A DNA stretch of 64,000 nt from Acidimicrobiaceae bacterium (GTDB taxonomy: Bacteria; Actinomycetota; Acidimicrobiia; Acidimicrobiales; JACDCH01), in assembly GCA_041166385.1 (NCBI GenBank), contig JBEEFW010000021.1, positions 32,185 through 96,184 of the forward strand. Direction: 5' to 3'. The notes below the pieces were generated by a model that saw only the letters and a program-made list of their open reading frames with translations, made no database searches and had not been told where the DNA came from. Position numbers and translations under genes: made by a program. This document shows positions 7,423-60,121 of this stretch, in pieces; position 1 is the stretch's first letter; every line of letters starts with the position of its first letter.

Positions 7423-7986
7423 TCAGCTGCCGAAGCGCTTCACCAAGGCGTGGACCCGTTTGGTGAACGCGTCCTCGTAGCGGCCGTGGAACTCGTCCCA
7501 CGTGCAGAGCGTGCGCGTGTCGGTCACGCGGTCGATGAACAGCGTGCCGTGCAAGTGGTCGGTCTCGTGCTGGAACGTTCCGGCCGAGAGCCCGCGCACG
7601 ACGGTGTCGATCGGGTCGCCATTGCGGTTGAGCGCCTGCACCCGTACCTCCACGGCGCGGTCGACGATGCCGCGCAACCCGGGCACCGACAGGCAGCCCT
7701 CGTAGTTGGCGAACGTCTCGTCGGTGAGCACCTCGACCGTCGGATTGATCAGCACCGTCAACGGGATCTCGGGCTTGTACGGGTAGCGCGGGTTGCCGGG
7801 TCGCACCTCGATCACGCACACCTGCACCGGTTCGCCGATCTGGTTGGCCGCGAGTCCCGCGCCATTCGCAGCGCGCATGGTGTCGATCAAGTCGTCGACG
7901 AGGCGCTGCACGTCGGCCGGCGCGACCGGTTGCGCACCCTCACGCAACAACGGGTGTCCGATCTGGATGATCTCGCGCACGGTCAT
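7423..7986 (-). CDS. def: peptide deformylase family protein (all three catalytic motifs intact)
   Basis: 187 aa from the internal ATG (MTVREIIQIGHPLL...). Motifs GAGLAANQIG, EGCLSVPG and QHETDHLHG are present. ATGA overlap with the hutI stop (7983-7986). Confidence 0.9.
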   Translation of the reverse strand: MTVREIIQIGHPLLREGAQPVAPADVQRLVDDLIDTMRAANGAGLAANQIGEPVQVCVIEVRPGNPRYPYKPEIPLTVLINPTVEVLTDETFANYEGCLSVPGLRGIVDRAVEVRVQALNRNGDPIDTVVRGLSAGTFQHETDHLHGTLFIDRVTDTRTLCTWDEFHGRYEDAFTKRVHALVKRFGS

Positions 7987-23970: not shown

Positions 23971-24249
23971 ATGGGTGCGCAGCGAACGACGTTTGACAAG
24001 CTCCAGCGCGACCGCGCCAAGAAGGCGAAGCAAGCCGCCAAGCGCGAACGCCGGCAGGAGAAATCCGCCGAAAACGGTGAAGAGACCGATGCCGACATCT
24101 CGCTCCCCGCGGGTGAAGGCGCACTCACCGCCGCCGAGCTCATGCAGCAGGTAGAGGCCATCACTCGACGCCTCGAGGCGGGCACGATCTCGCTCGAGGA
24201 CTTCGAGGACGCCAAAGCCGACCTGATGGAGCGTCTGCCCATCGACTGA
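23971..24249 (+). CDS. small charged protein with SHOCT-like C-terminus
   Basis: 92 aa. Lys/Arg-rich N-terminus. The C-terminal RRLEAGTISLEDFEDAKADLMERL resembles the SHOCT motif. The AAGGTAGG-type SD upstream is weak. Confidence 0.5.
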   Translation: MGAQRTTFDKLQRDRAKKAKQAAKRERRQEKSAENGEETDADISLPAGEGALTAAELMQQVEAITRRLEAGTISLEDFEDAKADLMERLPID

Positions 24250-24270
24250 CGCGCTGTTTCGGATGACCGC

Positions 24271-24304
24271 TTGACAACAGCTGAAAATGCATGAGAATGC
24301 ATGA
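24271..24304 (+). promoter_or_regulatory. sigma70-like promoter overlapped by a tandem palindrome-containing repeat
   Basis: Perfect TTGACA (24271-24276), 16 nt, then GAGAAT (24293-24298). AATGCATGA occurs twice with a 10-bp period (24286-24294 and 24296-24304), and each copy contains the palindrome ATGCAT. Confidence 0.35.
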
Positions 24305-24331
24305 AACACTCAGTTGGGGAAAGGTTGTCTC

Positions 24332-24610
24332 ATGGCAATGCGCGTACTCGCCGACCCGGTGGCCAAGGAACGGATCCTGCAGTTCCGCACCGTGCTCGAC
24401 AGCGGCTTCATCGAGTCGATCCAGCAACTGCTGACGGGAGGCGACGATCTCTCACAGCCGTGTTTCTGGGACGGCCCGAAGGCCAAGGAGTTCCAAGGGA
24501 TCTGGCCGGGCCTGCGCCAGTCACTGCTCGACGCCCACGCCGACCTGGCGGTGCTGGCGGGATCGATCGACTCGATCACCACCCAGATCATGACCGCCGG
24601 CGGCGGCTAG
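24332..24610 (+). CDS. WXG100 (ESAT-6-like) family small protein, candidate
   Basis: 92 aa from ATG 24332, with SD GGGGAAAGG 7 nt upstream. Central W-x-G (FWDGPKAKEFQGIW) between two helix-like halves. Confidence 0.55.
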   Translation: MAMRVLADPVAKERILQFRTVLDSGFIESIQQLLTGGDDLSQPCFWDGPKAKEFQGIWPGLRQSLLDAHADLAVLAGSIDSITTQIMTAGGG

Positions 24611-24617
24611 ATCGTTT

Positions 24618-24659
24618 TCCCACTCAGACGTACACATTTCTGTGTACGTCTGAGTGGGA
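24618..24659. repeat. palindromic intergenic element, copy 2
   Basis: Sequence is TCCCACTCAGACGTACAC-ATTTCT-GTGTACGTCTGAGTGGGA. It lies between the convergent stops at 24610 (+) and 24665 (-). Confidence 0.85.
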
Positions 24660-24664
24660 TTTCG

Positions 24665-25198
24665 TCATTCGCCGAAGTTCTCCATGAGGTTGAGCAGGTC
24701 GTCGGCGTGCTCCTCCTCGACGGCGAGGATCGTCTCGAGCATGCGCCGGGTGGTCACGTCGTTGTCGCCGAGCCAGCGGATGACTTCGCTGTAGGACTCG
24801 ATCGCGATGCGCTCGGCGACGAGGTCTTCCTTGAGCATCTCGGGGATCGTGTTGCTGGCGTCGTATTGCGCATGGCTGCGGGTCGTGAGGCCGTCGGGAT
24901 CGAAGTTCGGCTCGCCTTGGAGTTGGGTGATGCGGAGCGCGATCTGATCAGCGTGACCCTGTTCTTCGGTCGCGTGCTGCAGGAATTCGGCTGCGACGGC
25001 CTGTGAATGAATGCCACGCGCTGTGAAGTAGTGGCGCTTGTACCGCAGCACGCAGACGATCTCGGTCGCCAAGGCCTCGTTCAACACCTCGATCACTCGT
25101 TCGCGGTCGGCACCGTAGGCCGACGTGATCGGACCTTCCTCGATCTTCTGTCGCGCGCGGTCTCGGAGGGTCTGGATGTCTGTCAGGAATTCGGCCAC
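24665..25198 (-). CDS. bacterioferritin-like (ferritin-like di-iron) protein
   Basis: 177 aa with two ExxH motifs ([15 protein letters not shown]) plus matching Glu residues in a four-helix pattern. Confidence 0.8.
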
Positions 25199-25253
25199 GG
25201 GCGGAACCTACCCCTCTTCGGGGTTGTCACACCTCGGCGGTAGGGTGCCGTCG

Positions 25254-25814
25254 ATGGCCGACCAGGCGAAGTTTGCGGAGGAAGCAACGCCGTTCATGGA
25301 CTCGCTCTACGCCGCGGCCATGCGCATGACCCGCAACCCGTCCGATGCGGAAGACCTCGTACAGGAGACGTATCTCAAGGCCTATCGCGGCTTCGGGGGC
25401 TACGAGGAAGGCACGAACCTCAAGGCGTGGTTGTACCGGATCCTCACCAACACGTTCATCAACACGTACCGGGCGAAGAAGCGGCGGCCGATGGAGTCAG
25501 ACCTCGACGAAGTCGAAGACCTCTATCTGTACCGGCGATTGGGCGGGCTCGAGGCGGCGGCGGCCGGTCGTAGCGCCGAGGACGAGCTGCTCGACATCTA
25601 CACCGACGACGAGGTCAAGCGGGCCCTCGAAGAGCTCCCGGAGCAGTTCCGCATGGCCGTGATGCTGGCCGACGTCGAGGGTTTCAGCTACAAGGAGATC
25701 GCCGAGATCCTCGACATCCCGATCGGAACGGTGATGAGCAGATTGCACCGGGGAAGAAAAGGACTGCAGAAGAAGTTGTGGGAGTACGCCGTAGCTCGCG
25801 GCCTTGTGGCATAA
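25254..25814 (+). CDS. sigH: ECF sigma factor, SigH/SigR type
   Basis: 186 aa from MADQAKF... Long identical stretches to mycobacterial SigH as I remember it ([57 protein letters not shown]). Followed by a ZAS anti-sigma gene. Confidence 0.9.
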
Positions 25815-25823
25815 CGGTGATCG

Positions 25824-26075
25824 ATGGCTGACGGAAACTGCGACGACGCTCTGCACGAGTTGTACGGCTACCTCGATGGTGAGCTGACGGTCGAGCGGCG
25901 CATCACGATCCAGCACCACCTCGACGACTGCCCTCCCTGTTACGAGGCGTTCGACTTCGAGGCCGAGCTGCGGGTCGTGATCGCCCGGAAGTGCACCGAG
26001 ACGGTCCCCGAGTCGCTGAAAGAGCGCATCGCCGAGGCCATCCGTCAGGAAGCCACGCCCGAATCCTCCAGCTGA
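25824..26075 (+). CDS. rshA: zinc-associated anti-sigma factor (RsrA/RshA type)
   Basis: 83 aa with the HxxxCxxC motif (HHLDDCPPC) plus an N-terminal Cys. Lies immediately downstream of sigH. Confidence 0.85.
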   Translation: MADGNCDDALHELYGYLDGELTVERRITIQHHLDDCPPCYEAFDFEAELRVVIARKCTETVPESLKERIAEAIRQEATPESSS

Positions 26076-49005: not shown

Positions 49006-52000
49006 TCAGCGCACGATGGCGAGCCGTTCGGCCGTCGTCGGTTCCGCCAACGGGACCGTTGGCGTCCGTACGACGCCGAGCCCTTCGAAGAGGGCGGCCG
49101 CCTCATCTGCGAACTCCCCCGCGCGGTCGAGACCGAGCAGGTGGCCGACCGCGCCGAGCGCCTGCAGCGTGAGCGCGGACTCGTAGTCGGCGGCGGCCTC
49201 ACGGCTGCGCACGAGGCTGTAGCCGAGCCGCGACCAACCCGTGAGGGGGTCGCCTGCTTGCGCGTAGGCGTAGCCCAGCACGCGCTCCACGAGCATCGAC
49301 ACATACGGCGACGCGTTCATGCGCTTGGCGCGCGCGTCCACGTCGTTGGCCAGTTCGATCGCCGCCGCCGGATAGCCGGCGAGCACGAACCGTTCGGCGT
49401 CGCGGGCATCTGCTTCGAGCAGCATCCCCTCACCGCCGATCCGTCGGAGCACGGCGCGCGCTTGCGCGTACCACGCTGCCGCGTCCTCGAAGCGGCCCTC
49501 GCGCGCCGCGACGCGTCCGAGGTTGCCGAGCGCCATGCCCGTCATCGCGTGCCCCGACGCCCGCCAGATCGCCAGCGCCTCGTGGAACAGCGCGTCGGCT
49601 TCGATCGTGTGTCCCTGGTCCGAGCTGATCTCGGCGATGTTGTTGAGGATGAGCGCCTCCATCGCCAGTGCGCCCGCGGCGCGGGCCGCCTCGAGGCTGT
49701 CGCGGTACCAACTGGCCGCGTCGTCCCACCGGCCCTCGTAGTACGCGGCGATGCCCATGTTGTTGAGGGCGTTGGTGCGACCGACCTCGTCGCCGAGCTC
49801 GTCGTAGATCGCGAGCGACAGTTCGCTGTACGGCACCTCGGGCTCGAGCCGCAGCTCGATGTGGATCCAGTCGAGTAGGCGATAGGCGTGGGCGAGCACC
49901 GCCCGCACCTCGGCCGGCCGGGCGGCTTCGGCGAGTCGCACCCCTTCCTCGAGGATCGGCCGCGCCTTGAGATGGCGTCCTTGGCGGAGTTGCGCGGCGC
50001 CTTGGCTGACGGTGAGCTCGGCGCGGAGACGTAGGGACTCGTGATTCATCACCGTCGTCGCCAGGGCGGCGGTGCGGTCGAGCTCTGCGAACCCTCGCTT
50101 GTACGACCGGAGCGCATCGGAGAACCGTCCCTCGCGCTCCCACACGATGCCTGCCTTGCGGAACAGGGCGGCCACCGCGTGCGGATCGCCGGCAACGAAG
50201 CGGCGCGCCTGGCGATACGCCGCCATGGCTTCCACGTAGCGGCCGCTCAGCTCGGCGGCGTCCCCGAGCCGCTCGGCGACCGCGGCTCGGGCCGGCGACG
50301 TGATCTCGGGAAGATGGCGGGCGGCCTCGAGGGCGCGGCCGTAGAACGCGGTGGCCTCGACAGGTGCTCCCGCCTGTTGCGACCGTTCGCCCGCGAGACA
50401 CGAGTACTCCCATGCCTTCGTGTAATGGCGGGCCGCGTGGAAGTGGATCGACAGCAGCTCGGCCACCTCGTCGGGGCGGTCACCGGCATCGGCCTCGAGG
50501 ATCTCTCCGGCGCGGCCGTGCAACGTGTGGCGCGCCTTGAACGAAAGTCCCTCGTACGCGACATCGCGCAGGAGCACATGACGGAAGCGGACCATGCCTC
50601 GTGTGCCACCCGCGGCGGTGTTGTCGGGTCCGAGGAAGTGTCCCAGCCGACGCAGGCGAGGGGCGAGGGCCGCGGGCGTGACGTCGAGCATCTGCGCGAG
50701 CACGGGAACAGGGAACCGGCTCCCGAGCACCGCCGCCCGCCGCAAGAGCGATCGCTCGTCGCCTGGCAGCGTGTCGATCGTCGCGGCGATGACCGCCTCG
50801 ACGGTGTCGGGCAGCTCGGTCATCGAGCCATCGGTGGCGGCGCGCACGAGCTCCTGGAGGAACAGCGGGTTGCCACCGCTGCGGCTGGCAAGGTCGGCGA
50901 GCACCTGCGGCTGGAGGCGAGCGCCGTCGCCATCGGCGGTGAGCGACGTCGCCAAGGCGGACGCCGCGGCGTCGCCGAGCGGCTCGAGGGCGATGCGTGT
51001 CGGGTTCGCGCTCTCCGCCAACGACAGTCCGCCGAGTGTCGGGCGGCGGGTGACGATGATCGCCCACGGCCGACGGGCCACGTCGTTCAGCAGTTCGTGT
51101 AGGAGATCGCTCGACGCCGCATCGAGCCAGTGCGCGTCCTCCACGGTGATCAGCGCGGGCCCGGAGAGGACCCCGATCATCAACCGGGCGACCGCGTTCT
51201 GCACGCGAGCCGGGCGAAACGCGGGGTCGAGGCGCGCCATCTCCGGCGTGTCCGCGATCTCCAGCCCGAGCGGCACGCCCAGCAACGGCAGCCAGGGCAG
51301 GAGGTCTGGCGCGACATCCGCAACCGTGCGCCGCAGCGCGGCCTCGACCTCGTCCCTGTCACTGTCGACGCCGACACCGATCGCCTGCCGCAGTGGCCGG
51401 CGGAGCGGGTAGTACGGCGTCGCGAGGCTGTAGCGCCCAGCCTCCATCGAGAACACCGGCAGGCCATGCGGCAACGAGAGCACGGCGGCGAGCAGCTTCG
51501 ATTTGCCGATGCCCGGCTCGCCCACCAGTTCGACCACCACGCCGCTGCCCTCGTGTGCATCGGCGAGTGCCGATCGGACGATCCCGAGCTCGCGGTCGCG
51601 ACCGACGAGCGGGACGTCGCCCTCGTCCGACTCCATCCCCTCGAAGGTGTCTTGGACGTCGCCGATCACCGACGCGTGTACCGGCTGCGACTTGCCCTTC
51701 ACCGCGAACGGCTCGAGCGACGTGCGAGCGAACGACGTGCGTACGCGATCGACGAGCTCGTCGGTGGCGAGCACCTGCCCCCAGTCCGCGCGGCCCATCA
51801 CGCGGGCCGCGAGGTTCACGGCGTCGCCGATCACGGTGAAGGCGCGCCGCTCGCGGCTGCCGAGATCAACGGCAAAGACGCGGCCACGGCTGGCTCCGGC
51901 GCGCAGCGGCAAGCGGCCTCCAGCGTCCACGATCCGCCGCAGTGTGTGCACGAGGCAATCCGCGTCGTCGGGTGAGGCCGCCGGCACGCCCGCCGCGATG

Positions 52001-53013
52001 ATCAGCTTGAGCGCGCCCTTGTCGACATCGGTCGCGAGAAATGTTGTGCCGTGCTCGACACACGCGTCCTGCGCGTGGGAGATCACGTCGTGCAGCGCCT
52101 CGGCCAGCGCGGCCGGACCCGCGCCGGCGAGCAACGTGTCGGTCCCGCCGATCTGCACGAAGCCGATGGCCGCCAAGCGGTGCTCGCCGTCGTCCTCGCT
52201 CGTGCGGAGATGCGTCGCCAACGCGCCAGGCAGGCCGGGCGCGTGATCGTCGACCTCAGGCGCACGCGGCACCTCGACGTCCCCGATGGGTGGCGGGCGT
52301 CGCAACAGACGCCCTTCGCCGACGTCCGCTCCGAACGTGGCCCCGTCGAGCAGCGTCGCAGTGGAACGACCGACAACGACCTGACCGCTCGCCGCGGCGG
52401 CTTCCATCGCGAGAGTCGTGGTGGCCACCGGGCCTGTCACCAACAACTCGAGATGAGATGCCCCCGTGAGGAACAGGTGGCACTCGCCGGAGCACACGCC
52501 GACGGACATCCCGAGCCGGGCGATCCCCGCTTCGGTCTCGAGCCGGCGGTATGGCCTCAGCGCGGCGAGCATCTCCGTGGCGGCGGCACTCGCTCGGACG
52601 GCATGGCCATCGCCGCTGAACAACAGGAGGACGGCGTCGCCGCCGAACTTCAGGCAGTCGCCGCCGCGAGCCCCAGCGATGGCGAGGAGATCACCGAAGA
52701 CCGCGTTGAGGATCTCGGTGAGGTGCTCGGCACCGACCTTGCCAAGTCGCGCGAGCCGCTCGGTCAGCGGCGTGAAGCCGGAGACGTCGGCGAACACGAA
52801 CGTGCCGTCGATGGCGCGCCATGCCGGTGCCGCCCCGTGGCCGAGCCACTCCGCGTGCTGTACGGAGAGGTACGCACCGAGCTGTCGTCCGTCCGCTGTT
52901 GCTGCTCGCGTCATCGCCACTACGTCTTCCGCCCGGCTGGATCCGCCTCCTGTCCAACTGTTGCAGATTCGCCTGACCGAATCGCCCCTTTGTGCCGAGA
53001 TGAGGCTGCCCAT
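49006..53013 (-). CDS. tandem class III cyclase-homology domains + STAND P-loop NTPase + TPR protein
   Basis: CHD1 spans ~aa 68-225 (FVFADVSGFT, KFGGDAV). CHD2 spans ~aa 278-445 (IGDAVNLAARV). Walker A is GEPGIGKS and Walker B ITVEDAHWLD, followed by ~600 aa of TPR-like repeats. No C-terminal HTH seen. Alternative start ATG 52914. Confidence 0.85.
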   Translation of the reverse strand: MGSLISAQRGDSVRRICNSWTGGGSSRAEDVVAMTRAATADGRQLGAYLSVQHAEWLGHGAAPAWRAIDGTFVFADVSGFTPLTERLARLGKVGAEHLTEILNAVFGDLLAIAGARGGDCLKFGGDAVLLLFSGDGHAVRASAAATEMLAALRPYRRLETEAGIARLGMSVGVCSGECHLFLTGASHLELLVTGPVATTTLAMEAAAASGQVVVGRSTATLLDGATFGADVGEGRLLRRPPPIGDVEVPRAPEVDDHAPGLPGALATHLRTSEDDGEHRLAAIGFVQIGGTDTLLAGAGPAALAEALHDVISHAQDACVEHGTTFLATDVDKGALKLIIAAGVPAASPDDADCLVHTLRRIVDAGGRLPLRAGASRGRVFAVDLGSRERRAFTVIGDAVNLAARVMGRADWGQVLATDELVDRVRTSFARTSLEPFAVKGKSQPVHASVIGDVQDTFEGMESDEGDVPLVGRDRELGIVRSALADAHEGSGVVVELVGEPGIGKSKLLAAVLSLPHGLPVFSMEAGRYSLATPYYPLRRPLRQAIGVGVDSDRDEVEAALRRTVADVAPDLLPWLPLLGVPLGLEIADTPEMARLDPAFRPARVQNAVARLMIGVLSGPALITVEDAHWLDAASSDLLHELLNDVARRPWAIIVTRRPTLGGLSLAESANPTRIALEPLGDAAASALATSLTADGDGARLQPQVLADLASRSGGNPLFLQELVRAATDGSMTELPDTVEAVIAATIDTLPGDERSLLRRAAVLGSRFPVPVLAQMLDVTPAALAPRLRRLGHFLGPDNTAAGGTRGMVRFRHVLLRDVAYEGLSFKARHTLHGRAGEILEADAGDRPDEVAELLSIHFHAARHYTKAWEYSCLAGERSQQAGAPVEATAFYGRALEAARHLPEITSPARAAVAERLGDAAELSGRYVEAMAAYRQARRFVAGDPHAVAALFRKAGIVWEREGRFSDALRSYKRGFAELDRTAALATTVMNHESLRLRAELTVSQGAAQLRQGRHLKARPILEEGVRLAEAARPAEVRAVLAHAYRLLDWIHIELRLEPEVPYSELSLAIYDELGDEVGRTNALNNMGIAAYYEGRWDDAASWYRDSLEAARAAGALAMEALILNNIAEISSDQGHTIEADALFHEALAIWRASGHAMTGMALGNLGRVAAREGRFEDAAAWYAQARAVLRRIGGEGMLLEADARDAERFVLAGYPAAAIELANDVDARAKRMNASPYVSMLVERVLGYAYAQAGDPLTGWSRLGYSLVRSREAAADYESALTLQALGAVGHLLGLDRAGEFADEAAALFEGLGVVRTPTVPLAEPTTAERLAIVR

Positions 53014-53054
53014 CCCGCCGAAGCGTCAGGGAAGTCGCACGCTCCGGCGGGACT

Positions 53055-53099
53055 GTGACGCAGTCACGCCTGGGGTTAGGCCTTTGTGACTAGTTAGGC
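53055..53099. promoter_or_regulatory. operator-like motif cluster in the divergent intergenic region
   Basis: Palindrome GTGAC-GCA-GTCAC at 53055-53067. Direct repeat TTAGGC at 53076-53081 and 53094-53099. A third GTGAC at 53086-53090. Confidence 0.25.
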
Positions 53100-53164
53100 A
53101 ACCCCCGTCCTTCGCACACTGGCGAGCAACGGACGAGACCAGGCGAACTGGGCGAGGGCACAAC

Positions 53165-56100
53165 ATGACGAAGAACTGGGTTCGGCGCGGCGTGGCGATG
53201 GCCATCTCGGTGGCCGTGATGGCGGGACTCCTTGCGGTGACGGAATCGACGGCGTCGGCCGCGACGCCACCGGCTGGCTCTGCCGGCGCGCTCGACAGCG
53301 GTTTCGGTACGGGCGGCGTCACGTCGACGTCTGACCCGACGCTGACCCTCACGGCGGCCAGCAAGGTGCTCGTGCAGCCTGACGGCAAGATCGTCGTCGC
53401 CGGCATTCAACCCGGGAGCGCTGGCAACGTCGTCGTCACCCGGTTCACCGCGACCGGAGCGAAGGACACCACGTTCGGCGCGCCCCTCGGGTACACGAAG
53501 CCAGGGCTGGGCAGCGCCTCTTCGCAAGACGGCGTGCAGATCGCGCTGCAGCCCGACGGCAAGATCCTCGTCGCCGGCTCGAAGGTGGTCAGCTCGCAAG
53601 CGAGGATCGCACTCGCCCGCCTGAACTCCAACGGCTCGCTCGACACCACCTTCGCCAGCGGCGGCACTGCGACGCTCGCCTTCGGTTCTTCCATGCCGCA
53701 ACAGCACGGCTCGGGTGTGTTGGTGCTGCCGAGCGGCCAGATCCTGATGAGCATCTGGATCGGACCGGGGCACGACGCGTTCAAAGTCGTCCGGTACTCG
53801 TCCACCGGCGTGTTCGACACCAGCTTCGGCAGCAGCGGCCTCGCGATCTCGCGCCCGATCACCGGTCAACCGGCGCAGGCCGCTGACCTCGCGTTGACAT
53901 CCGACAACAAGATCGTCGTCGTCGGGTCGGTCAACACCACCCACAACAGCATCGCCCAGACCGACACCGCCGTCGTGCGCTTCACCGCGTCCGGACAGCC
54001 GGACACGACGTTTCCCGCGCCGTCCGGCAACTCGCAAGGTGCGGCCATCCTCGACCGGAACAGCTCGAAGAACGATGCCGCCAACGCGGTGCTGATCGAC
54101 GCGTCCGGTCGCATCAACCTCTCTGGCACCATCGCGTCGACGCCGTCAGCGGCCTACGTGATGCGACTCACGTCGACTGGTGTGGCCGACTCGACGTTCG
54201 GTACCGGCGGCGTGCTGCAAGGCACCTTCGGCGGCGCGGCCGCGACGGGCGGCGGCGCGGCCTTCGACGCCAACGGGCGGCTGCTCGTCGCCGGCGGCGA
54301 CGGGGCATCGACCACGAACGCGCTCGGCATCGAGCGTCTGTTGTCGAGCGGCGCGACGCCGTACGACGGCACCTTCGGTCTGACGAGCACGCCGGGACGC
54401 GAGAGCGTCGTGTGCTCACCGGCGAACTCCGGCGCGGGGTACTCGGTCGCGGTGCAGCCCGATCAGCGCATCGTGCTCGCCGGTGTGTGCAACGGAGCCA
54501 TCACCGTCGCGCGCCTGAATGTCGGCAACCTCAGCAACCTCACGATGACGACCTCGACGCCCAACGCGCCGGCGGGTCACGGCACGATCCCGCTGTCGAG
54601 CGTTCCGGGCGGCGCGCTGCTGTCGACCACGAACAGCCTCATGAGCTCACCTGGATTCGGAACGCCCGGCTTTGGCACCCCGGGATTCGGTTCACCCGGA
54701 TTCGGTAGTCCCGGCTTCGGCACCCCCGGTTTCGGCACCCCCGGTTTCGGCACGCCGGGATTCGGCACGCCGGGATTCGGCACGCCGGTCGACCAGTCGC
54801 CGTTGACCGATCCGTTCCTCGGCCCGATTCCGCTGTCGGCGATCGCGATCTCTCCGTCGGCGCTCGATCCAACGGCGCCGTCGACGTGGGACCAGGTGCT
54901 CGCGGGCACGGTGTATGCCGGACTGCCCACGCAGAGCATCACGATCCAACAGCTGTTCGCGCTCAACCCGGTTCCTGCCGCGTTGCACAAGGTGACCATC
55001 GGTCAGCTCGACGTCAGCGCGACGGGTCTGCGGAAGGCCAGCGTCGGCGCGTACCTGCTGGGGCGCACACCCACGTCGGCGCTCCCGGCTCCGGCCGGCG
55101 GCTTCTGCAACTACCTGACGGGCCAACCTGCCAACTGCTCGAACACCAACGTTGCAACCGCGAGCTTGTTGGGTCTCGAGTTGCAGGGTGATTCGTTCCA
55201 GTCGTACTTCTCGTCGACGCCGATCAATCTCGTCGGTCTCGCGCTGACGGGCTCGCCGCTCAGCACGACGCTGCTCAACAACATCGACGTCGCGCAGACC
55301 ACGCTCGGCGCGGTCCGAGCCACTGCGCTCACGACACCGTCGACGTTCCTGAAGTGCACGCCGTCGTCCACCGCCGGCCCGTGCTACACGCTCGCCGACG
55401 CGCTGGCGTCCGGCAACATCCAGACGACAGCGGGTGCAACCCTCGGCGCGTTGCTCGCGAATTCGCCGAGCGCCGTCGGACAGCTCTACCTCTCGAACCT
55501 GCTGCTCGGTCTCATGTCGCGCCAGAGCCTTCCGATCGAGAACCTGGCCGCCACGACCGACATCGTGGCGAACTCGCCCCTGCCCACCAGCGGCGCGGCG
55601 TACACGATCGGTTTCGACATGGGCTGCGGCGCGGCCAGCTCGCTCGTGGTCACGCCCGCACTCCCGGCAGGGTTCCGGCTCATCCCGAGCACGGTGAACA
55701 TGACCGTCGGCAGCAGCTCGGTGAACACGACGGTCGGCGCCGACGGCACGATCAGGCCCTCTGGGTCCTTCTCGTGCTCGCAGACGCAGCACGTGACCGT
55801 GAATCTGCAGGCAGAGCCATCATCGGTTCTCGGGGGTCCCGTCACCGCGGGCACGACGGTCGCGGTGTCGACCGACTCGTTGTCGCTCAGCAACCAGGCA
55901 CCCGTGACGACCGTCGACAACTTCGAGCCCGACGACGTGACCGCCGGCAACCCAGGGAACAGCAAGCCCTTCGGCTCGCTGTACCTCGGTCACATCTCCG
56001 GTCCTGGCGACATCGACTATTTCGTGCTCCAGCCGCCGCCGTCAGGTTCGACGGTGACGGTGACGCTGAGCAACCTCCCGATCGACGCCGACCTCATGAT

Positions 56101-59100
56101 GTACGGCGCGGCCTCGCCGCTGCTTCGAGCCTCACCCGGTTTCGGCACGCCCGGCTTCGGGACTCCTGGGTTCGGGTCGCCTGGCTTCGGGACTCCTGGG
56201 TTCGGGTCGCCTGGCTTCGGGTCGCCCGGCTTCGGTTCACCTGGTTTCGGGACGCCTGGCTTCGGCTCGCCCGGCTTCGGGAGCGACGCGGCCGACAAGG
56301 CCACCCCGCCGCAACTCACTGATGACGTGCCACGGCTCAACCTTCCCGTCCGTGGCTTCTCGGCGCAGCGCAATCTCGTCGGAGAGTCGATCACCACGAA
56401 GGTCACCGACGCCGACACCTCGCCGCTGCTGATCCAAGTGTCCGGGTACAACGGCGCCTCCAGCCCGCAGCCGTACACGCTGCGGATCTCGGCGACGCCC
56501 GCGCCCGGTGCGATCCCGTGTCAGGCGCGATCGTTCCCGACCCGCGGTACTGCCGGCACGCTGCCGTCGACGCCGCTGCCGGGCAACACGCAGACGCTGA
56601 TCCTCACCAACCAGAAGCGCCTCGGTGACGTGTACGGAAACGTCGCATTGCCTGGTGGCTTCAACGGCGACGCGGGCGTGGGCATGACTGCCCGCCTCCA
56701 GTCGCTCGCCGGCCAGTCGTACGTCAACGGCGTCGTGGTGCCTGTCGAAGGCGACGCGGCCGTGGCGAACGCGTATGCCGCGTGGGACGCGTCACCATGC
56801 AACGTCGCGCTTGCGAACGACGTGGTCGCGAAGGTCAATGCCCTCGTCGACCGGCTGCGCTCGGGTCTCAACGACCTGCGCTACATCGTGATCGCCGGCT
56901 CGGACGAGATCATCCCGATGGGCCGCGTGCCGGACAAGACCGCGTTCTACAACGAGGCCGGGTTCTCGGCCGGCATCTTCGGTGGGGCCGACAACGCGCA
57001 GTCGAGCGCGGCCAAGAAGGGCTTCATCCTCTCCGACAACCCGTTCGGTGACTTCGCGCCGACCGCCATGCTCGATACGCAACTGTTCGTGCCGCAGATC
57101 GCGGTCGGTCGACTCGTCGAGACGCCCGCCGAGATGGCCGCGAGCGTCGACGGCTGCGTCACCGCCGGCTGCCGAACGACTCCGAGTGCCTCGTTCGTGA
57201 CCGGATACGCACCGATGGACAAGGGTGCGCAGGAGATCAACTCGATCCTGGCGCAGCGGGGCGTGGCCACAAGCTCACAGATCAACAACACGTGGACCCG
57301 CAACGACGCGAAGAACGGTCTCGCCAGTGCCGCGAACGGCTACGGCGCGATCAACGCGCACTACGACTACTCGCGGGCGCTTCCCGCGCAGGAGTTCACG
57401 AACGGCACCGAGTCGGATCCGCTGTCGACGGCCGATCTTCCGAGCTCGCTCGCGGGGGGCGTGCAATGGACGATCGGATGTCACTCCGGTCTCAACATCC
57501 CCGACATCTACATCGCGTCACCGACCCAAGCCGAGCAGGCGAAGACGCTCGACTGGTCACAGGCGATGCTGCACAACGGTGCTGCCGGCTTCGTCGGACA
57601 GACCGGCTACGGCCTCGGAGACACCGATGCTCTCGCGTACTCCGAGCGTCTGTCGGTCGCGTTCGCGAAGAACCTCGACGGCACGATGACGATCGGACAG
57701 GCGCTTGCCTTCGCGAAGCAACAGTTCCTCGCCACGGGCGCGCCGAGCGTCTACGACGTGAAATCGGTTCAAGAGGCCACGTTCTACGGCTTGCCGATGT
57801 GGAGGATCGGACCGAGTGGTACGAGCGCACAGGCGACGTTGCCTCCGCCTCCGCCGTCACCGCCGTCGACCGTGACGCTCGCGAGCACGTCGAAGCAGTT
57901 CGACTCGGCCGTGACGCCGTTCAGCAACCCGCCCCGCACGTCGAACAACGGACGCGGGCAGTACTACACGGTTGGCAACGAAGCGCCGCAGGTGACGCCG
58001 AACCAGCCGATCGAGCCGCGCACCGAGATCCAGCTGGATCCGCGCAGTGACGGTCTCGTTGCGCACGGAGCAGTCATCGAGACGCTCAGCTCGCAGGACA
58101 CCCCCGGGTTCAACCCCATCTACGCGACTGCGATCGCGGACGTCGGTACGTTCAATCCGGAGCCCAAGGTCAGCACCGCGTACTTCCCGTCGGCGTTGCA
58201 GTCGGTCTCGGGCATCGTCACGCCGAACGGCCGTCGCGACTCCGTCGTGCTCGTGCCGGGCCAGTTCTTCAGCGACGGCAGCGGTACCGGCACCGGAACG
58301 CAACGGCTGTACACGAAGGTCGGCCTCACCGTCCTGTCGTCGAACTCCCTCGACTCCACCGCGCCGCGCATCGCGACGGTGAACGGCGGCATCCAGGGCA
58401 TCACCGCGTCCTTCACGGTCACCACGCCGGCCACCGACGTCCAGCGAGCCGTCTTCCTGGTGCTCGTGAATCCCTCACAGGGCTGGAAGCACGTCGAAGC
58501 GGTCAACGCGGGCGGAGGCAAGTGGGTCGGCACGATGACGGTGCCGTCGGGCACGCCGTCGATCGGTCAGTACTTCGTGCAGCTCGCTGACACGAGCGGC
58601 AACGTCGGCATCGACTCGAACAAGGGCCAGGACTGGTCGGCTGGCGGCATCCCTGGCTTCTCCTTCAGCGCCAACCCCGGAGCGGACCCCAACACCGGCC
58701 TCTACCCGGACGGCACCACGGTCAGCATCACCCCGCCCACCGGTGTCTCATTCACGTACAGCCTCGACGGAGGACCCAACCAGTCCTACACGGGCCCGAT
58801 CACGATCACCGGCGACAAGGGTCACACCCTGACCGCCACTGCATCGAACGGCGTGACTGCATCGCTCGGCATCCCGATCGACGCGCATGATCCGACGGCG
58901 ACGATCACCTCACCGGCCAACGGTGGCAACTACAACCGCGGTCAGGTGGTGACGCCTGCGTACTCGTGCTCGAGCGCGGTCACGATCCGATCGTGCACCG
59001 GTCCGACGACGGTCGACACGTCGTCGCCGGGGTCGAAGACCTACACCGTGACTGCCACCGACGTGTTCGGGCGCACCGGTACCGGGTCGTCGACGTACAA

Positions 59101-59692
59101 CGTCGTCAATCGGGTGCCCGCCATCGTGTTCACGACGAAGCCGTCGAACCCGACGCACCCGGCCGATCCGGCCTACGGGAAGTTCGTGTACGCCTTGTCG
59201 GATCCTGACGACCCGGTGTCGTCGCTGTCGGTCACGTGCAAGCTCGATGGTGCGAGCGTGCCGTGCGGCAACGACCTGGCCACGGTCACGCCGGCGCCAC
59301 GGTCGGCGAGTCACACGTTCGTGGCGACGGTGACGGATCCGTTCGGCGGCACCGGTTCGGCGTCGTACACCTGGAACGTGTACTTCGACACGGTGCTCAC
59401 CGCGAACGGGGTGGTGGCCAGCATCCCGCGCTTCGATGCGGACCTGAAGACGACCGGCGGTGCGTCGGTGGGCGCGGGCAAGACCGTCCACTTCTTCGCC
59501 GGTCAGAACCAGAACCCGAGCGACGGCACGGGCGCACTGTGCTCCGCCGTGACCGATGCAAGTGGCCACGCGACGTGTGGCGACGCGGCGACCACGCTGG
59601 CTGCGCTGGGCGCAGGAGGCATCACGGTCGTGTTCTTCGGCACGGTCGACTACTGGAAGGCCGCCCCGAAGAACGCGGCGGTCGTCGGCTAG
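53165..59692 (+). CDS. giant secreted multidomain protein (propeller repeats, PGFG[ST] arrays, PPC-like, gingipain/C25-like, Ig-like modules)
   Basis: Uninterrupted 2,175-codon ORF. Signal-like N-terminus MTKNWVRRGVAMAISVAVMAGLLAVTESTASA. Domain reading is given in the findings. Confidence 0.85.
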   Translation: MTKNWVRRGVAMAISVAVMAGLLAVTESTASAATPPAGSAGALDSGFGTGGVTSTSDPTLTLTAASKVLVQPDGKIVVAGIQPGSAGNVVVTRFTATGAKDTTFGAPLGYTKPGLGSASSQDGVQIALQPDGKILVAGSKVVSSQARIALARLNSNGSLDTTFASGGTATLAFGSSMPQQHGSGVLVLPSGQILMSIWIGPGHDAFKVVRYSSTGVFDTSFGSSGLAISRPITGQPAQAADLALTSDNKIVVVGSVNTTHNSIAQTDTAVVRFTASGQPDTTFPAPSGNSQGAAILDRNSSKNDAANAVLIDASGRINLSGTIASTPSAAYVMRLTSTGVADSTFGTGGVLQGTFGGAAATGGGAAFDANGRLLVAGGDGASTTNALGIERLLSSGATPYDGTFGLTSTPGRESVVCSPANSGAGYSVAVQPDQRIVLAGVCNGAITVARLNVGNLSNLTMTTSTPNAPAGHGTIPLSSVPGGALLSTTNSLMSSPGFGTPGFGTPGFGSPGFGSPGFGTPGFGTPGFGTPGFGTPGFGTPVDQSPLTDPFLGPIPLSAIAISPSALDPTAPSTWDQVLAGTVYAGLPTQSITIQQLFALNPVPAALHKVTIGQLDVSATGLRKASVGAYLLGRTPTSALPAPAGGFCNYLTGQPANCSNTNVATASLLGLELQGDSFQSYFSSTPINLVGLALTGSPLSTTLLNNIDVAQTTLGAVRATALTTPSTFLKCTPSSTAGPCYTLADALASGNIQTTAGATLGALLANSPSAVGQLYLSNLLLGLMSRQSLPIENLAATTDIVANSPLPTSGAAYTIGFDMGCGAASSLVVTPALPAGFRLIPSTVNMTVGSSSVNTTVGADGTIRPSGSFSCSQTQHVTVNLQAEPSSVLGGPVTAGTTVAVSTDSLSLSNQAPVTTVDNFEPDDVTAGNPGNSKPFGSLYLGHISGPGDIDYFVLQPPPSGSTVTVTLSNLPIDADLMMYGAASPLLRASPGFGTPGFGTPGFGSPGFGTPGFGSPGFGSPGFGSPGFGTPGFGSPGFGSDAADKATPPQLTDDVPRLNLPVRGFSAQRNLVGESITTKVTDADTSPLLIQVSGYNGASSPQPYTLRISATPAPGAIPCQARSFPTRGTAGTLPSTPLPGNTQTLILTNQKRLGDVYGNVALPGGFNGDAGVGMTARLQSLAGQSYVNGVVVPVEGDAAVANAYAAWDASPCNVALANDVVAKVNALVDRLRSGLNDLRYIVIAGSDEIIPMGRVPDKTAFYNEAGFSAGIFGGADNAQSSAAKKGFILSDNPFGDFAPTAMLDTQLFVPQIAVGRLVETPAEMAASVDGCVTAGCRTTPSASFVTGYAPMDKGAQEINSILAQRGVATSSQINNTWTRNDAKNGLASAANGYGAINAHYDYSRALPAQEFTNGTESDPLSTADLPSSLAGGVQWTIGCHSGLNIPDIYIASPTQAEQAKTLDWSQAMLHNGAAGFVGQTGYGLGDTDALAYSERLSVAFAKNLDGTMTIGQALAFAKQQFLATGAPSVYDVKSVQEATFYGLPMWRIGPSGTSAQATLPPPPPSPPSTVTLASTSKQFDSAVTPFSNPPRTSNNGRGQYYTVGNEAPQVTPNQPIEPRTEIQLDPRSDGLVAHGAVIETLSSQDTPGFNPIYATAIADVGTFNPEPKVSTAYFPSALQSVSGIVTPNGRRDSVVLVPGQFFSDGSGTGTGTQRLYTKVGLTVLSSNSLDSTAPRIATVNGGIQGITASFTVTTPATDVQRAVFLVLVNPSQGWKHVEAVNAGGGKWVGTMTVPSGTPSIGQYFVQLADTSGNVGIDSNKGQDWSAGGIPGFSFSANPGADPNTGLYPDGTTVSITPPTGVSFTYSLDGGPNQSYTGPITITGDKGHTLTATASNGVTASLGIPIDAHDPTATITSPANGGNYNRGQVVTPAYSCSSAVTIRSCTGPTTVDTSSPGSKTYTVTATDVFGRTGTGSSTYNVVNRVPAIVFTTKPSNPTHPADPAYGKFVYALSDPDDPVSSLSVTCKLDGASVPCGNDLATVTPAPRSASHTFVATVTDPFGGTGSASYTWNVYFDTVLTANGVVASIPRFDADLKTTGGASVGAGKTVHFFAGQNQNPSDGTGALCSAVTDASGHATCGDAATTLAALGAGGITVVFFGTVDYWKAAPKNAAVVG
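54650..54784 (+). repeat. in-frame 15-bp tandem array 1 (9 units, PGFG[ST])
   Basis: Covers aa 496-540 of the giant ORF. Units 8 and 9 are nucleotide-identical. The others differ mostly at synonymous sites. Confidence 0.95.
56135..56284 (+). repeat. in-frame 15-bp tandem array 2 (10 units, PGFG[ST])
   Basis: Covers aa 991-1040. Contains an exact 30-bp tandem duplication (56153-56182 = 56183-56212). Confidence 0.95.
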
Positions 59693-59696
59693 CGCG

Positions 59697-59724
59697 ATCC
59701 GGGGCGGGTTCACCCGCCCCGGAT
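59697..59724 (+). terminator. GC-rich perfect hairpin after the giant gene
   Basis: Sequence is ATCCGGGGCGGG-TTCA-CCCGCCCCGGAT (12-bp stem), starting 5 nt after the TAG at 59690-59692. No clear T-tract follows. Confidence 0.55.
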
Positions 59725-59746
59725 GTGCGCAGTAGGGTCCGGCGTC

Positions 59747-60121
59747 GTGTACCGGAAGATCCTCGTCGGCACCGATGGATCGACGACCGCGGCCAAGGCC
59801 GTCGATCGTGCCGTCGACGTCGCCAAGGCCGCGGGTGCGACCCTCACGATCTTCACGGCCGCGCCACCGAGCAAGGGCGACAAGATCGTTGCCGCCGAAT
59901 CGCAGCGCCACGCCAACTCCGGGGTCGCCATCGACACCCGTGTTTCCGACGCCGAGCCGGTCGGTGCGCTCATCGACACTGCTCGCTCGGGTGGGTACGA
60001 CCTCGTGGTGATCGGCAACCGCGGCATGACCGGCGTGACCCGCTTCCTGCGGCTCGGGTCGGTGCCGAACAAGGTGAGCCACCATCTGCCGTGCAGCCTG
60101 CTCATCGTCAAGACAACCTGA
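59747..60121 (+). CDS. universal stress protein (UspA family)
   Basis: GTG 59747 (VYRKILVGTDGS...). C-terminal ...VVIGNRGMTGVTRFLRLGSVPNKVSHHLPCSLLIV. Confidence 0.8.
   Translation: MYRKILVGTDGSTTAAKAVDRAVDVAKAAGATLTIFTAAPPSKGDKIVAAESQRHANSGVAIDTRVSDAEPVGALIDTARSGGYDLVVIGNRGMTGVTRFLRLGSVPNKVSHHLPCSLLIVKTT

Follow-up and report, generated by a model that had tools for sequence, protein, structure and literature searches.

Peptide signalling through cytoplasmic receptors is, to our knowledge, known essentially from Bacillota and their phages. In the RRNPP systems (Rap-Phr, NprR-NprX, PlcR-PapR and phage AimR-AimP), the gene for a TPR receptor lies beside the gene for a Sec-exported precursor of a peptide of 5-7 residues; the propeptide has about 40-60 residues, and the output is a helix-turn-helix (HTH) domain or a phosphatase. 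In pherotype loci such as Bacillus comQXP and staphylococcal agr, the gene pair forms a hypervariable island between conserved flanks. Actinomycetota are considered to depend mainly on small lipophilic autoinducers. Of such communication in Chloroflexota and Acidimicrobiia, abundant but mostly uncultured inhabitants of soil and activated sludge, next to nothing is known. Here we describe a gene pair found in a stretch of 64,000 nucleotides (contig JBEEFW010000021.1 of assembly GCA_041166385.1, from an Acidimicrobiaceae bacterium), all of which we call the window. One gene (53165..59692, + strand, ATG start, stop included) encodes a 2,175-residue protein with a signal-like N-terminus and two tandem arrays of the peptide PGFG[ST]; the other (49006..53013, - strand) encodes a 1,335-residue protein that combines a class III cyclase, a STAND NTPase and a TPR sensor. 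We tentatively propose, while giving the idea somewhat less than an even chance, that the pair is a two-gene peptide-signalling (pherotype-like) module in which the large protein is a polyprotein-like precursor.

The likeness to the RRNPP systems lies in the gene for a cytoplasmic TPR protein beside the gene for an exported candidate precursor, in the lineage-specific peptide units, in the co-divergence of the two genes and in the absence of an importer from the locus. The differences are substantial, however: the partner is a STAND ATPase with a cyclase, the candidate precursor has 2,175 residues, 19 peptide copies and its own protease, and there is no homology beyond generic TPRs. Because neither the propeptide size nor the output of the RRNPP systems is found here, the module is not a member of that group but at most an analogue. 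The pherotype loci likewise share the layout of a hypervariable island between conserved flanks, but their components are unrelated, and the divergence in our case is between metagenome-assembled genomes (MAGs) with 96-98% identical ClpC rather than a polymorphism within a species. The original prediction, made from the sequence of the window, could assign the domain combination of the large protein to no characterised family, and that assessment still stands. Its homologues are unnamed or called 'uncharacterized delta-60 repeat protein', none has a known function, PDB sequence searches gave no described relative, and our search of the literature, which covered the gene pair, its combination of domains and the repeat sequences, found no description of the family. 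In a 2020 survey of STAND-based conflict systems in multicellular bacteria (Kaur et al. 2020, PMC7159879), both C25 peptidases and this architecture go unmentioned. We take the pair to be a widespread two-gene module without an earlier description, new as a system and hypothetical in its function.

The arrays are the most conspicuous part of the large protein. Array 1 consists of nine PGFG[ST] units (residues 496-540; 54650-54784, + strand) and array 2 of ten (residues 991-1040; 56135-56284, + strand), and AlphaFold2 predicted both to be disordered (predicted local distance difference test, pLDDT, 23-30) between confidently modelled domains. Across the 19 units of the window, nearly every third codon position varies and the peptide stays PGFG[ST]. 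When units within the same array were compared by the Nei-Gojobori method, the proportions of synonymous (pS) and nonsynonymous (pN) differences were 0.58 and 0.064 in the window and 0.47 and 0.066 when 53 loci were pooled, with pS exceeding pN in 52 of the 53. Synonymous divergence around a constant peptide indicates that selection keeps the unit peptide, rather than recent slippage or gene conversion; thus, we conclude that each unit is individually held to the same peptide by purifying selection. The count for array 1 is nine in each of the seven PGFG-type proteins, even those that have another N-terminal domain and identities of 51-53%, and about nine units are also typical of the arrays built from 4-residue and 6-residue units found elsewhere in the family. 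Since the number is about nine whatever the unit length, it is the unit count and not the array length that is conserved.

A profile of the peptidase-like domain of the large protein (the C25-like domain, below), searched against one genome per species, gave 119 relatives, and 80 loci, almost all from MAGs, were retrieved. Full-length homologues of the large protein range from 30 to 88% identity. In Actinomycetota the carriers include Acidimicrobiales, Microthrixaceae, Sporichthyaceae, Mycobacteriales, Solirubrobacterales, Gaiellaceae, Marmoricola and Nocardioides sp. Root240, and in Chloroflexota they include Anaerolineae, Caldilineales, Thermoflexales and Ardenticatenaceae. The offsets of the arrays from the C25-like domain are conserved in both phyla: one array lies at about -600 residues, sometimes at -460, and another at -90 to -150, in a loop of the PPC-like domain. 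In the window this loop, occupied by array 2, follows 'DADLMMYG', and the position after 'D.DL..YG' is retained even in a homologue with 26% identity (P0129), whose only array is the one in the PPC loop and has the unit SAPFV.

The unit itself differs from lineage to lineage. We recognised about 36 genuine units of 4, 5 or 6 residues in 71 loci. The 4-residue units are PFHS, PFNS, PFHG and PFKG; those of 5 residues include PGFGT, SPFGQ, SPLRV, TAMRR, GIPLG, GSIAA and AIRRT; and those of 6 residues are GQLGNV, GQISNI, AQLSNI, PFARSG, MARSGP and SIGAAG. Among individual homologues, the units are PGFNT (P0004), GPFGH (P0005), SPFGQ (P0006), GSFGG (P0007), SPLRV (P0010), SPVRS (P0012), IPIRG (P0016), IPLRS (P0017), TAMRR (P0018), TAIRR (P0019), SPLRG/SMLRG (P0126) and VPLRS (P0127). 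Within a protein, by comparison, the unit is uniform: of 46 loci with at least two in-frame arrays, 37 have the identical consensus unit in all arrays of the protein and 8 more have at most one mismatch, the sole exception being a frameshifted nanopore MAG. In most units, a core made of a small residue, a Pro (or Ala, Ser or Gln) and a hydrophobic residue precedes 1-3 variable residues, and this common core suggests that the units descend from a common ancestor.

Some observations bear on the origin and the variety of the units. The central solenoid of the large protein (see below) contains a motif, T620-x-x-R623-x-x-S626 (TGLRKAS in the window, residues 620-626; 55022-55042, + strand), whose three named residues are invariant in our alignment A6 (T76, R79 and S82). 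In lineages with Arg-type units this TxxRxxS motif equals the array unit, as in 'NSTAMRRTS' of the TAMRR protein and 'STPVRSSS' of the SPVRS protein, and likewise in the TAIRR protein. Because of this identity, the Arg-containing units may be ancestral, perhaps as copies of an Arg-specific processing site, and the FG-type units, including that of the window, may be derived; the identity also hints that the arrays began as copies of the solenoid motif. In the homologue P0125 a frameshift turns the PGFG array into 'WLRVT/WLRHA', similar to LR-type units seen in distant homologues; for a frameshift relation between FG-type and LR-type units, the DNA profile similarity is only 0.55 off-frame vs 0.39 in frame. 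P0125, from array 2 onward, and P0003, past residue ~1450, are frameshifted metagenomic assemblies. In nine Chloroflexota loci (L045, L049, L051, L053, L055, L060, L065, L067 and L070) the proteins are shorter, about 1,200-1,400 residues, and carry two adjacent arrays of 6-residue units in the PPC loop, at about -145 and -107 residues. The units of these loci (e.g. GQLGNV and GQISNI) all contain Asn, which is the P1 residue of the clan CD legumains.

The gene next to the large gene was the second element examined. It lies directly upstream and is divergent, which agrees with the divergent pairing with a cyclase-STAND-TPR gene that had been read from the sequence. Its product matched the Pfam families Guanylate_cyc (E value 7e-16; class III cyclase domain or domains), AAA_16 (the STAND NTPase; 8e-18) and TPR_12 (the sensor; 2e-24). 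We found no hydrophobic or transmembrane segment in this 1,335-residue protein, and it is therefore taken to be cytoplasmic. The closest similarity of its TPR region is to TPRs that bind peptides in LGN/GPSM2 and kinesin light chain. The order of cyclase, AAA_16 and TPR/MalT-like regions, and the ligand-gated logic of STAND proteins, recall the mycobacterial and actinobacterial class III cyclases of the Rv0386 type and the MalT/LAL regulators. No LuxR-type HTH was detected in the partner. We know of no report that any of these proteins is coupled to a secreted protein with repeats, and of no ligands for the mycobacterial cyclase-ATPase-TPR proteins. Where the 5' end of the cyclase gene meets the intergenic region (53013-53052), there is a 14-nucleotide inverted repeat, TCCCGCCGAAGCGT and ACGCTCCGGCGGGA, whose arms are 93% complementary and 12 nucleotides apart.

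The co-occurrence of the two genes, which had been put forward as a check, was pronounced across the family. At the first seven loci examined, a gene for a cyclase-AAA_16-TPR protein of ~1,270-1,335 residues was directly adjacent, in three arrangements and several genomic contexts. A near-full-length partner homologue was adjacent in 57 of the 61 array-bearing loci with enough flanking DNA. The two genes could be divergent, convergent or in tandem in either order, and their genomic contexts were many. The cyclase-STAND-TPR gene is thus an obligate partner and not a chance neighbour. The most distant Chloroflexota homologues, with Pro/Thr linkers and no arrays, mostly lack this neighbour, on the basis of few informative loci. 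No third gene family (permease, exporter, regulator or effector) was conserved near the pair, the best cluster being present in 8 of ~85 loci and reflecting synteny within a clade.

A comparison of the flanking DNA showed how the pair diverges relative to its surroundings. In the window, ClpC is encoded on one side of the pair and Usp, RadA and DisA on the other, and we compared the segment 45388-63459 with the loci L012, L007, L006 and L001, expressing all values as amino-acid identity to the window. For L012 (MAG Acidimicrobiaceae bacterium BP_82), identity was 89% for polyprenyl synthase, 98% for ClpC, 84% for Usp, 89% for RadA and 95% for DisA, and it was 51% for the cyclase-STAND-TPR protein and 44% for the large protein, whose unit is PFNS; the gene order also differs. 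By this comparison the window falls in or near Acidimicrobiaceae, in a close relative of that MAG. At L007, where RadA and DisA are not on the contig, polyprenyl synthase (77%), ClpC (96%) and Usp (78%) surround a pair with identities of 51% (cyclase-STAND-TPR protein) and 52% (large protein) and the unit SPFGQ. At L001, which has the unit PGFG[ST] as in the window, the flanking proteins had identities of 92% (polyprenyl synthase), 99% (ClpC), 89% (Usp), 96% (RadA) and 98% (DisA), and the pair had 89% and 88%, respectively. We conclude that the chromosomal slot is conserved, that the two genes in it make up a hypervariable island and that they diverge jointly. Across 49 loci, the identity of the sensor region fell with the distance between units (partial Mantel r -0.32, p 2e-4), when controlled for the identities of the NTPase, cyclase and C25 domains and their squares. 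The C25 domain also tracked the unit in these tests (r -0.25), and the NTPase and cyclase domains showed no link.

The large protein also carries a candidate for the enzyme that would process the arrays. Residues 1140-1560 (56582..57844, + strand) form a C25 (gingipain)-like clan CD peptidase domain, according to PF01364 and conserved motifs. The isolated domain scored 23.0 bits against PF01364 (profile positions 66-350 of 374), exactly at the cut-off of 23, and longer pieces scored 22.4 and 17.2 bits; the profile matched five of seven homologues (best E value 2.9e-10), and P0010, P0130 and P0131 are annotated with precomputed matches to it. Motifs conserved in the region are VGxD..IP, LSDxPYGD, VGRLVET, NAH and GCHxGL, which in the window read 'VIAGSDEIIP', 'LSDNPFGD...VPQIAVGRLVET', 'AINAH' and 'TIGCHSGLN'. 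The candidate catalytic residues, His1399 in 'GAINAH' (57359-57361, + strand) and Cys1439 in 'VQWTIGCHSG' (57479-57481, + strand), are invariant in all 24 aligned family members and also, as H290 and C330, in alignment A4. In an AlphaFold2 model of residues 1110-2175 (1,066 residues), the C25-like part alternates strands and helices with a pLDDT of 45-90, and the Foldseek matches of the model come mostly from the Ig-like tail; the C25-like domain gave no useful match when searched by sequence and by profile against the PDB. Membership in C25 is borderline by profile and agrees with the His-then-Cys dyad that follows hydrophobic strands in the sequence; we regard the domain as a probable C25 peptidase. 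As in gingipains RgpB and Kgp and in PorU, the His precedes the Cys at the ends of hydrophobic strands, 'SDxPYGD ... VGRLVET' is recognisable, the protein appears to be secreted, and Ig-like sandwiches follow the catalytic domain. Unlike those enzymes, the window protein has 'NAH' in place of the usual His-Gly, lacks a C-terminal domain for the type IX secretion system and comes from a host outside Bacteroidota; moreover, its domain is embedded among a propeller, a solenoid, a PPC domain and arrays, and the local unit is without Arg or Lys.

A possible link from the cyclase back to the large gene was found in the DNA upstream of it. The window has a palindromic CRP-like site, TGTGACGCAG-TCACG (53054..53068, no strand assigned), which is unique in the window and has a spacer of N5, one base under the consensus. 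At L001 the orthologous site (~7892-7907) reads TGTGA-N6-TCACG at -97, within an upstream region of 150 bp that is ~90% identical as a whole between the window and L001. CRP/GlxR-type palindromes (TGTGA-N6-TCAC[AG]) occur upstream of the large gene in L001, L004, L006, L012, L016, L034 and L048. Of 53 loci, 7 had a match to TGTGA-N6-TCACA at 9 or more of the 10 positions in the stretch from 50 to 143 bp ahead of the predicted start, compared with 2 matches in the remaining 1.06 Mb, a ~260-fold upstream enrichment (Poisson P ~2e-15). Given these sites, the output of the cyclase could feed back on expression of the precursor.

The steps that we infer are array cleavage, peptide release, uptake, TPR binding and feedback through cyclic AMP (cAMP) and CRP. 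The large protein would be exported, and both disordered arrays, with their 19 copies of PGFG[ST], would be the substrate of its own C25-like cysteine peptidase, acting in cis or between molecules. The peptidase would free many copies of a short, lineage-specific oligopeptide, which would return to the cell through a general peptide permease and bind the TPR sensor of the cytoplasmic STAND ATPase. Binding would turn on the fused class III cyclase, and the cAMP would act by way of a regulator of the CRP type; some family members would thereby have feedback on the promoter of the large gene. To keep or display the protein on the cell surface would be the task of the propeller, solenoid, PPC and Ig-like domains. 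We favour signalling because it covers the exposed and selected units, the peptidase in the same chain, the lineage-specific and uniform unit, the TPR/cyclase neighbour and the joint divergence of the two genes. It is possible, although we would put the broader claim clearly short of even, that these genes represent a new class of cell-cell communication in Actinomycetota and Chloroflexota, in which a secreted polyprotein pheromone with about 10-20 tandem copies of a species-specific 4-6-residue peptide is self-liberated, read by an NLR-like STAND-TPR-cyclase and subject to cAMP-CRP autoinduction, and in which rapid co-diversification of the peptide and its sensor would produce pherotypes among close relatives.

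Several points weigh against this proposal. Cleavage, release, uptake and binding are themselves a proposal drawn from sequence and models, and a precursor of 2,175 residues is extravagant next to the 40-60-residue propeptides of known systems. PGFG[ST] contains no Arg, Lys, Asn or Asp, one of which is normally required at the P1 position by peptidases of clan CD; no residue common to all units would define a single cleavage site; and, when acidic alignment columns, as candidates for an S1-pocket residue, were compared with the presence of Arg/Lys-containing units, several were associated (best p 1e-7), none of them cleanly, and the associations were confounded by phylogeny. The interior of a folded PPC domain, where array 2 lies, is an odd site for a releasable peptide, and no peptide permease is encoded near the pair. 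As to co-divergence, the signal is weak when phylogeny is taken into account, and partial Mantel tests are known to give over-optimistic results; among 23 closest pairs chosen to be independent, the effect for the sensor had a p of 0.022 and was confounded with the level of divergence, and the C25 effect was gone. As to feedback, the CRP-like sites are confined to 7 of 53 loci, and the site in the window has the one-base-short spacer.

The arrays and the peptidase could instead belong to a secreted or surface protease-adhesin, in which the arrays would be self-processing tethers (freeing the propeller and opening the PPC domain) or pseudo-substrates of the C25 domain, the neighbour would regulate the gene through cAMP/CRP in response to another ligand, and the unit would co-evolve only with protease specificity. 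It is common for secreted proteases to lose PPC domains and pro-regions, and the arrays are disordered and placed between or inside domains, as such tethers would be. The invariance of the His and Cys is also consistent with this reading, as are the partial Mantel correlation of C25 divergence with the unit (r -0.25), the identity of the R-type unit with the invariant TxxRxxS of the solenoid, which could be an ancestral processing site, and the upstream CRP-like sites, which fit plain regulation. However, the C25 effect is lost in the independent pairs, and a protease-adhesin leaves unexplained why there are about nine identical copies per array at any unit length, why a cytoplasmic partner drops to 51% identity between flanks at 84-98%, and why the sensor tracks the unit, unlike the NTPase and cyclase. 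We regard it as a somewhat doubtful alternative.

A role in kin recognition or conflict (guard/decoy) would make the arrays a polymorphic surface determinant, or bait to be cut by foreign proteases, whether of competitors or predators or associated with phages; an NLR-like STAND protein would sense the resulting fragments or damage and fire a cyclase alarm. According to the survey cited above, immune and conflict systems of multicellular or filamentous Actinomycetota and Chloroflexota typically include STAND NTPases that have TPR sensors (PMC7159879). The hypervariability of the island within its conserved slot, with many unit types, would suit such a role, but selection on the units of a protein is purifying and holds them identical, where diversification would be expected, and with a peptidase in cis that has an invariant dyad, self-processing is the simpler account. 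Moreover, the module encodes no effector (toxin, nuclease or pore), and the unit motif is absent from the partner STAND protein, unlike in amyloid-signalling NLR pairs. Taken together, we consider a guard/decoy function unlikely.

The large protein could also be a ribosomal natural-product precursor that need not signal to the neighbour, with the clan CD domain acting as a transpeptidase to make head-to-tail cyclic tetra-, penta- and hexapeptides. Clan CD includes peptide cyclases and transamidases, e.g. asparaginyl endopeptidase/butelase, and the BURP-domain cyclases of plants are a precedent for a substrate fused to its enzyme. The contiguity of the units, which have no spacers, is as expected for this alternative, as is the abundance of Pro or Gly in most of them, which favours cyclisation, although TAMRR and AIRRT have neither residue. 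No tailoring, exporter or immunity genes are conserved nearby, and we think this reading quite improbable. It is very hard to maintain that the arrays are neutral low-complexity linkers born of replication slippage, or an assembly artefact, beside a coincidental cyclase gene: short tandem repeats are common in large secreted proteins and AlphaFold2 predicts disorder in the arrays, but the units are synonymously diverged yet identical as peptides, the arrays keep their place and number of copies down to 26-51% identity, separate arrays share the unit, the partner is adjacent in 57 of 61 loci in all orientations, and independent assemblies agree.

Two further groups of repeat proteins were compared with the arrays. 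Multi-copy precursors (yeast alpha-factor, the Kex2-processed ustiloxin and phomopsin precursors, BURP proteins and cyanobactin PatE) also contain, within one secreted polypeptide, tandem short peptides that selection keeps identical, and in BURP proteins the enzyme is fused to the repeats. They are mostly eukaryotic, the cyanobactins excepted, have spacers such as KR, depend on Kex2/subtilisin or on a copper-dependent BURP domain and have no sensor-cyclase, whereas the units of the window protein are contiguous. The pentapeptide-repeat (Rfr) proteins, with the pattern A(D/N)LXX, resemble the arrays in their tandem units of 5 residues, in which a hydrophobic residue stands at the centre, two positions after a small one (compare SPLRV, TAMRR and PGFGT). 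We rejected an Rfr fold for the arrays, which have no match to PF00805, a period of 4-6 residues and predicted disorder rather than a beta-helix; in addition, they are near-identical rather than degenerate, and units of 4 or 6 residues occur elsewhere in the family.

If the signalling proposal is correct, it would provide a peptide language for Actinomycetota and Chloroflexota whose 'words' can be read from the genome, a ligand class for the large orphan family of cyclase-STAND-TPR proteins, which has mycobacterial relatives, and the first bacterial tandem multi-copy peptide precursor fused to its processing protease. Even if signalling is wrong, short peptide arrays that keep their position and count, under purifying selection within each protein, as their sequence and even unit length shift between lineages would be unusual in the way proteins evolve. 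The proposal can be put to a direct test, since one carrier is in culture. Nocardioides sp. Root240, the sole cultured isolate among the 80 loci (L068, NZ_LMIT01000016.1), is a practical model organism for the module; its large gene is an open frame of 2,571 codons with the unit MARSGP, and the partner gene is directly upstream on the same strand.

The remaining features of the large gene concern its integrity, export and domain anatomy. The original prediction had described the largest ORF (open reading frame) of the window as encoding, in order, a signal-like N-terminus, six to seven units of a delta-60 propeller, a first PGFG[ST] array, about 380 residues of no recognised type, a PPC-like sandwich split by a second array, a gingipain/C25-like region and some 600 residues of Ig-like modules, with no LPXTG, lipobox or C-terminal transmembrane segment and with a strong hairpin at the 3' end. 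This description was borne out in its parts, with PPC and C25 weak by sequence; the PPC assignment held for the fold and not for the Pfam profile. The ORF at 53165..59692 is the longest of the region by a wide margin. The possibility of an assembly chimera, raised at the same time, was not upheld. The orthologue with 88% identity (P0002 at L001), from an independent metagenome, has the same architecture, the same neighbours and 9 + 10 repeat units, and array 1 has its nine units in seven of seven PGFG-type proteins; we conclude from this agreement that the ORF is neither a chimera nor a collapsed repeat. Gly, Ala, Thr and Ser each account for ~10-12% of the protein, which has 19 Cys.

The signal peptide is predicted to span residues 1-32 (53165..53260, + strand), with an RR-containing n-region, an h-region and ASA then A at the presumed cleavage site. 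The N-terminus, MTKNWVRRGVAMAISVAVMAGLLAVTESTASA followed by ATPP, contains the sole Kyte-Doolittle hydrophobic window of the protein, and signal-like N-termini are also present in its homologues. The twin-arginine pair is kept in the signal peptides of the clade of the window (P0002-P0006 and P0121-P0124) and is absent in more distant homologues. Because the pair is conserved there, export in this clade could be dependent on twin-arginine translocation (Tat). A whole-sequence scan found no lipobox, no C-terminal transmembrane or hydrophobic segment and no terminal LPXTG, only internal LALTG and LALTS, and by these sequence features the large protein belongs to neither the sortase-anchored nor the lipoprotein class of surface proteins. 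At the other end of the gene, a GC-rich hairpin spans and follows the stop codon (59688-59733, + strand; folding free energy -38.2 kcal/mol, z -7.1, none of 200 shuffles folding as well) and is probably a terminator without a T-tract. A scan of 52900-59900 for consensus promoters and terminators found nothing, the hairpin being missed because it has no T-run.

Residues 44-455 (53294..54529, + strand) are predicted to form a seven-bladed delta-60 (DUF5122) beta-propeller. The region scored 187.7 bits against TIGR02608 (delta_60_rpt; cut-off 76.5, E value 2e-56, 6 stretches) and 106.8 bits against PF17164 (cut-off 27, E value 6e-31). Blade starts of the form DxxF[GAP] occur seven times, at residues 44, 101, 160, 218, 280, 342 and 401, and seven such motifs spaced 57-62 residues apart make seven blades likely. 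With profile scores above the curated cut-offs and units of about 55-60 residues, the sequence places this part of the protein in the delta-60 propellers. In other family members the propeller is swapped for different N-terminal domains.

No Pfam match was found for residues 541-930, even at an E value of up to 10. An AlphaFold2 model of the central region (residues 455-1150) was built on 15 family sequences, and its folds were searched in the PDB with Foldseek. The model is confident over residues 541-930 (pLDDT 85-94) and resolves residues 541-805 (54785..55579, + strand) as a family-specific solenoid of ~12 short units, each a bridge plus a one-turn helix, and these ~265 residues had no specific Foldseek relative in the PDB. 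Residues 811-917 (55595..55915, + strand) are modelled as a pilin/CnaB-like Ig-type beta-sandwich, with Foldseek matches to EbpB, RrgB and SdrD. The PPC-fold sandwich is placed at residues 938-1111 (55976..56497, + strand) and is split by array 2 and ~20 more disordered residues. With the array removed, it scored 16.1 bits against PF04151 (E value 0.022), below the cut-off of 25.9, but the best PDB match of the model was to the PPC-fold collagen-binding domains s3a-s3b of ColG (5iku, E value 6.4e-5, probability 1.00). Thus, the modelled fold supports a PPC domain and the profile does not; PPC motifs can be read in the sequence as 'GDIDYF...DADLMMYG' and 'IQVSGYNG...YTLRIS'. The C-terminal ~600 residues (1572-2171; 57878..59677, + strand) had no Pfam match and are predicted to be tandem Ig-like beta-sandwich domains, in an all-beta AlphaFold2 model with a pLDDT of 80-90. 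Foldseek matched this tail to multi-Ig chains, GhpA, SiiE, cadherins, C3 MG domains and adhesins with E values of 1e-7 to 1e-9.

A profile of the solenoid plus the following sandwich (residues 545-930) matched 586 clusters at 50% identity, 417 of them at an E value of 1e-10 or below. In P0160, P0164, P0170, P0174, P0223, P0226 and others, positions 1-175 of this profile match 3-11 times per large protein, and these repeated matches of its first half indicate that the solenoid module can be tandemly multiplied in other architectures. Finally, positions 24001-26000 of the window have a G+C content of 0.626, compared with 0.66-0.72 in the rest of the window.

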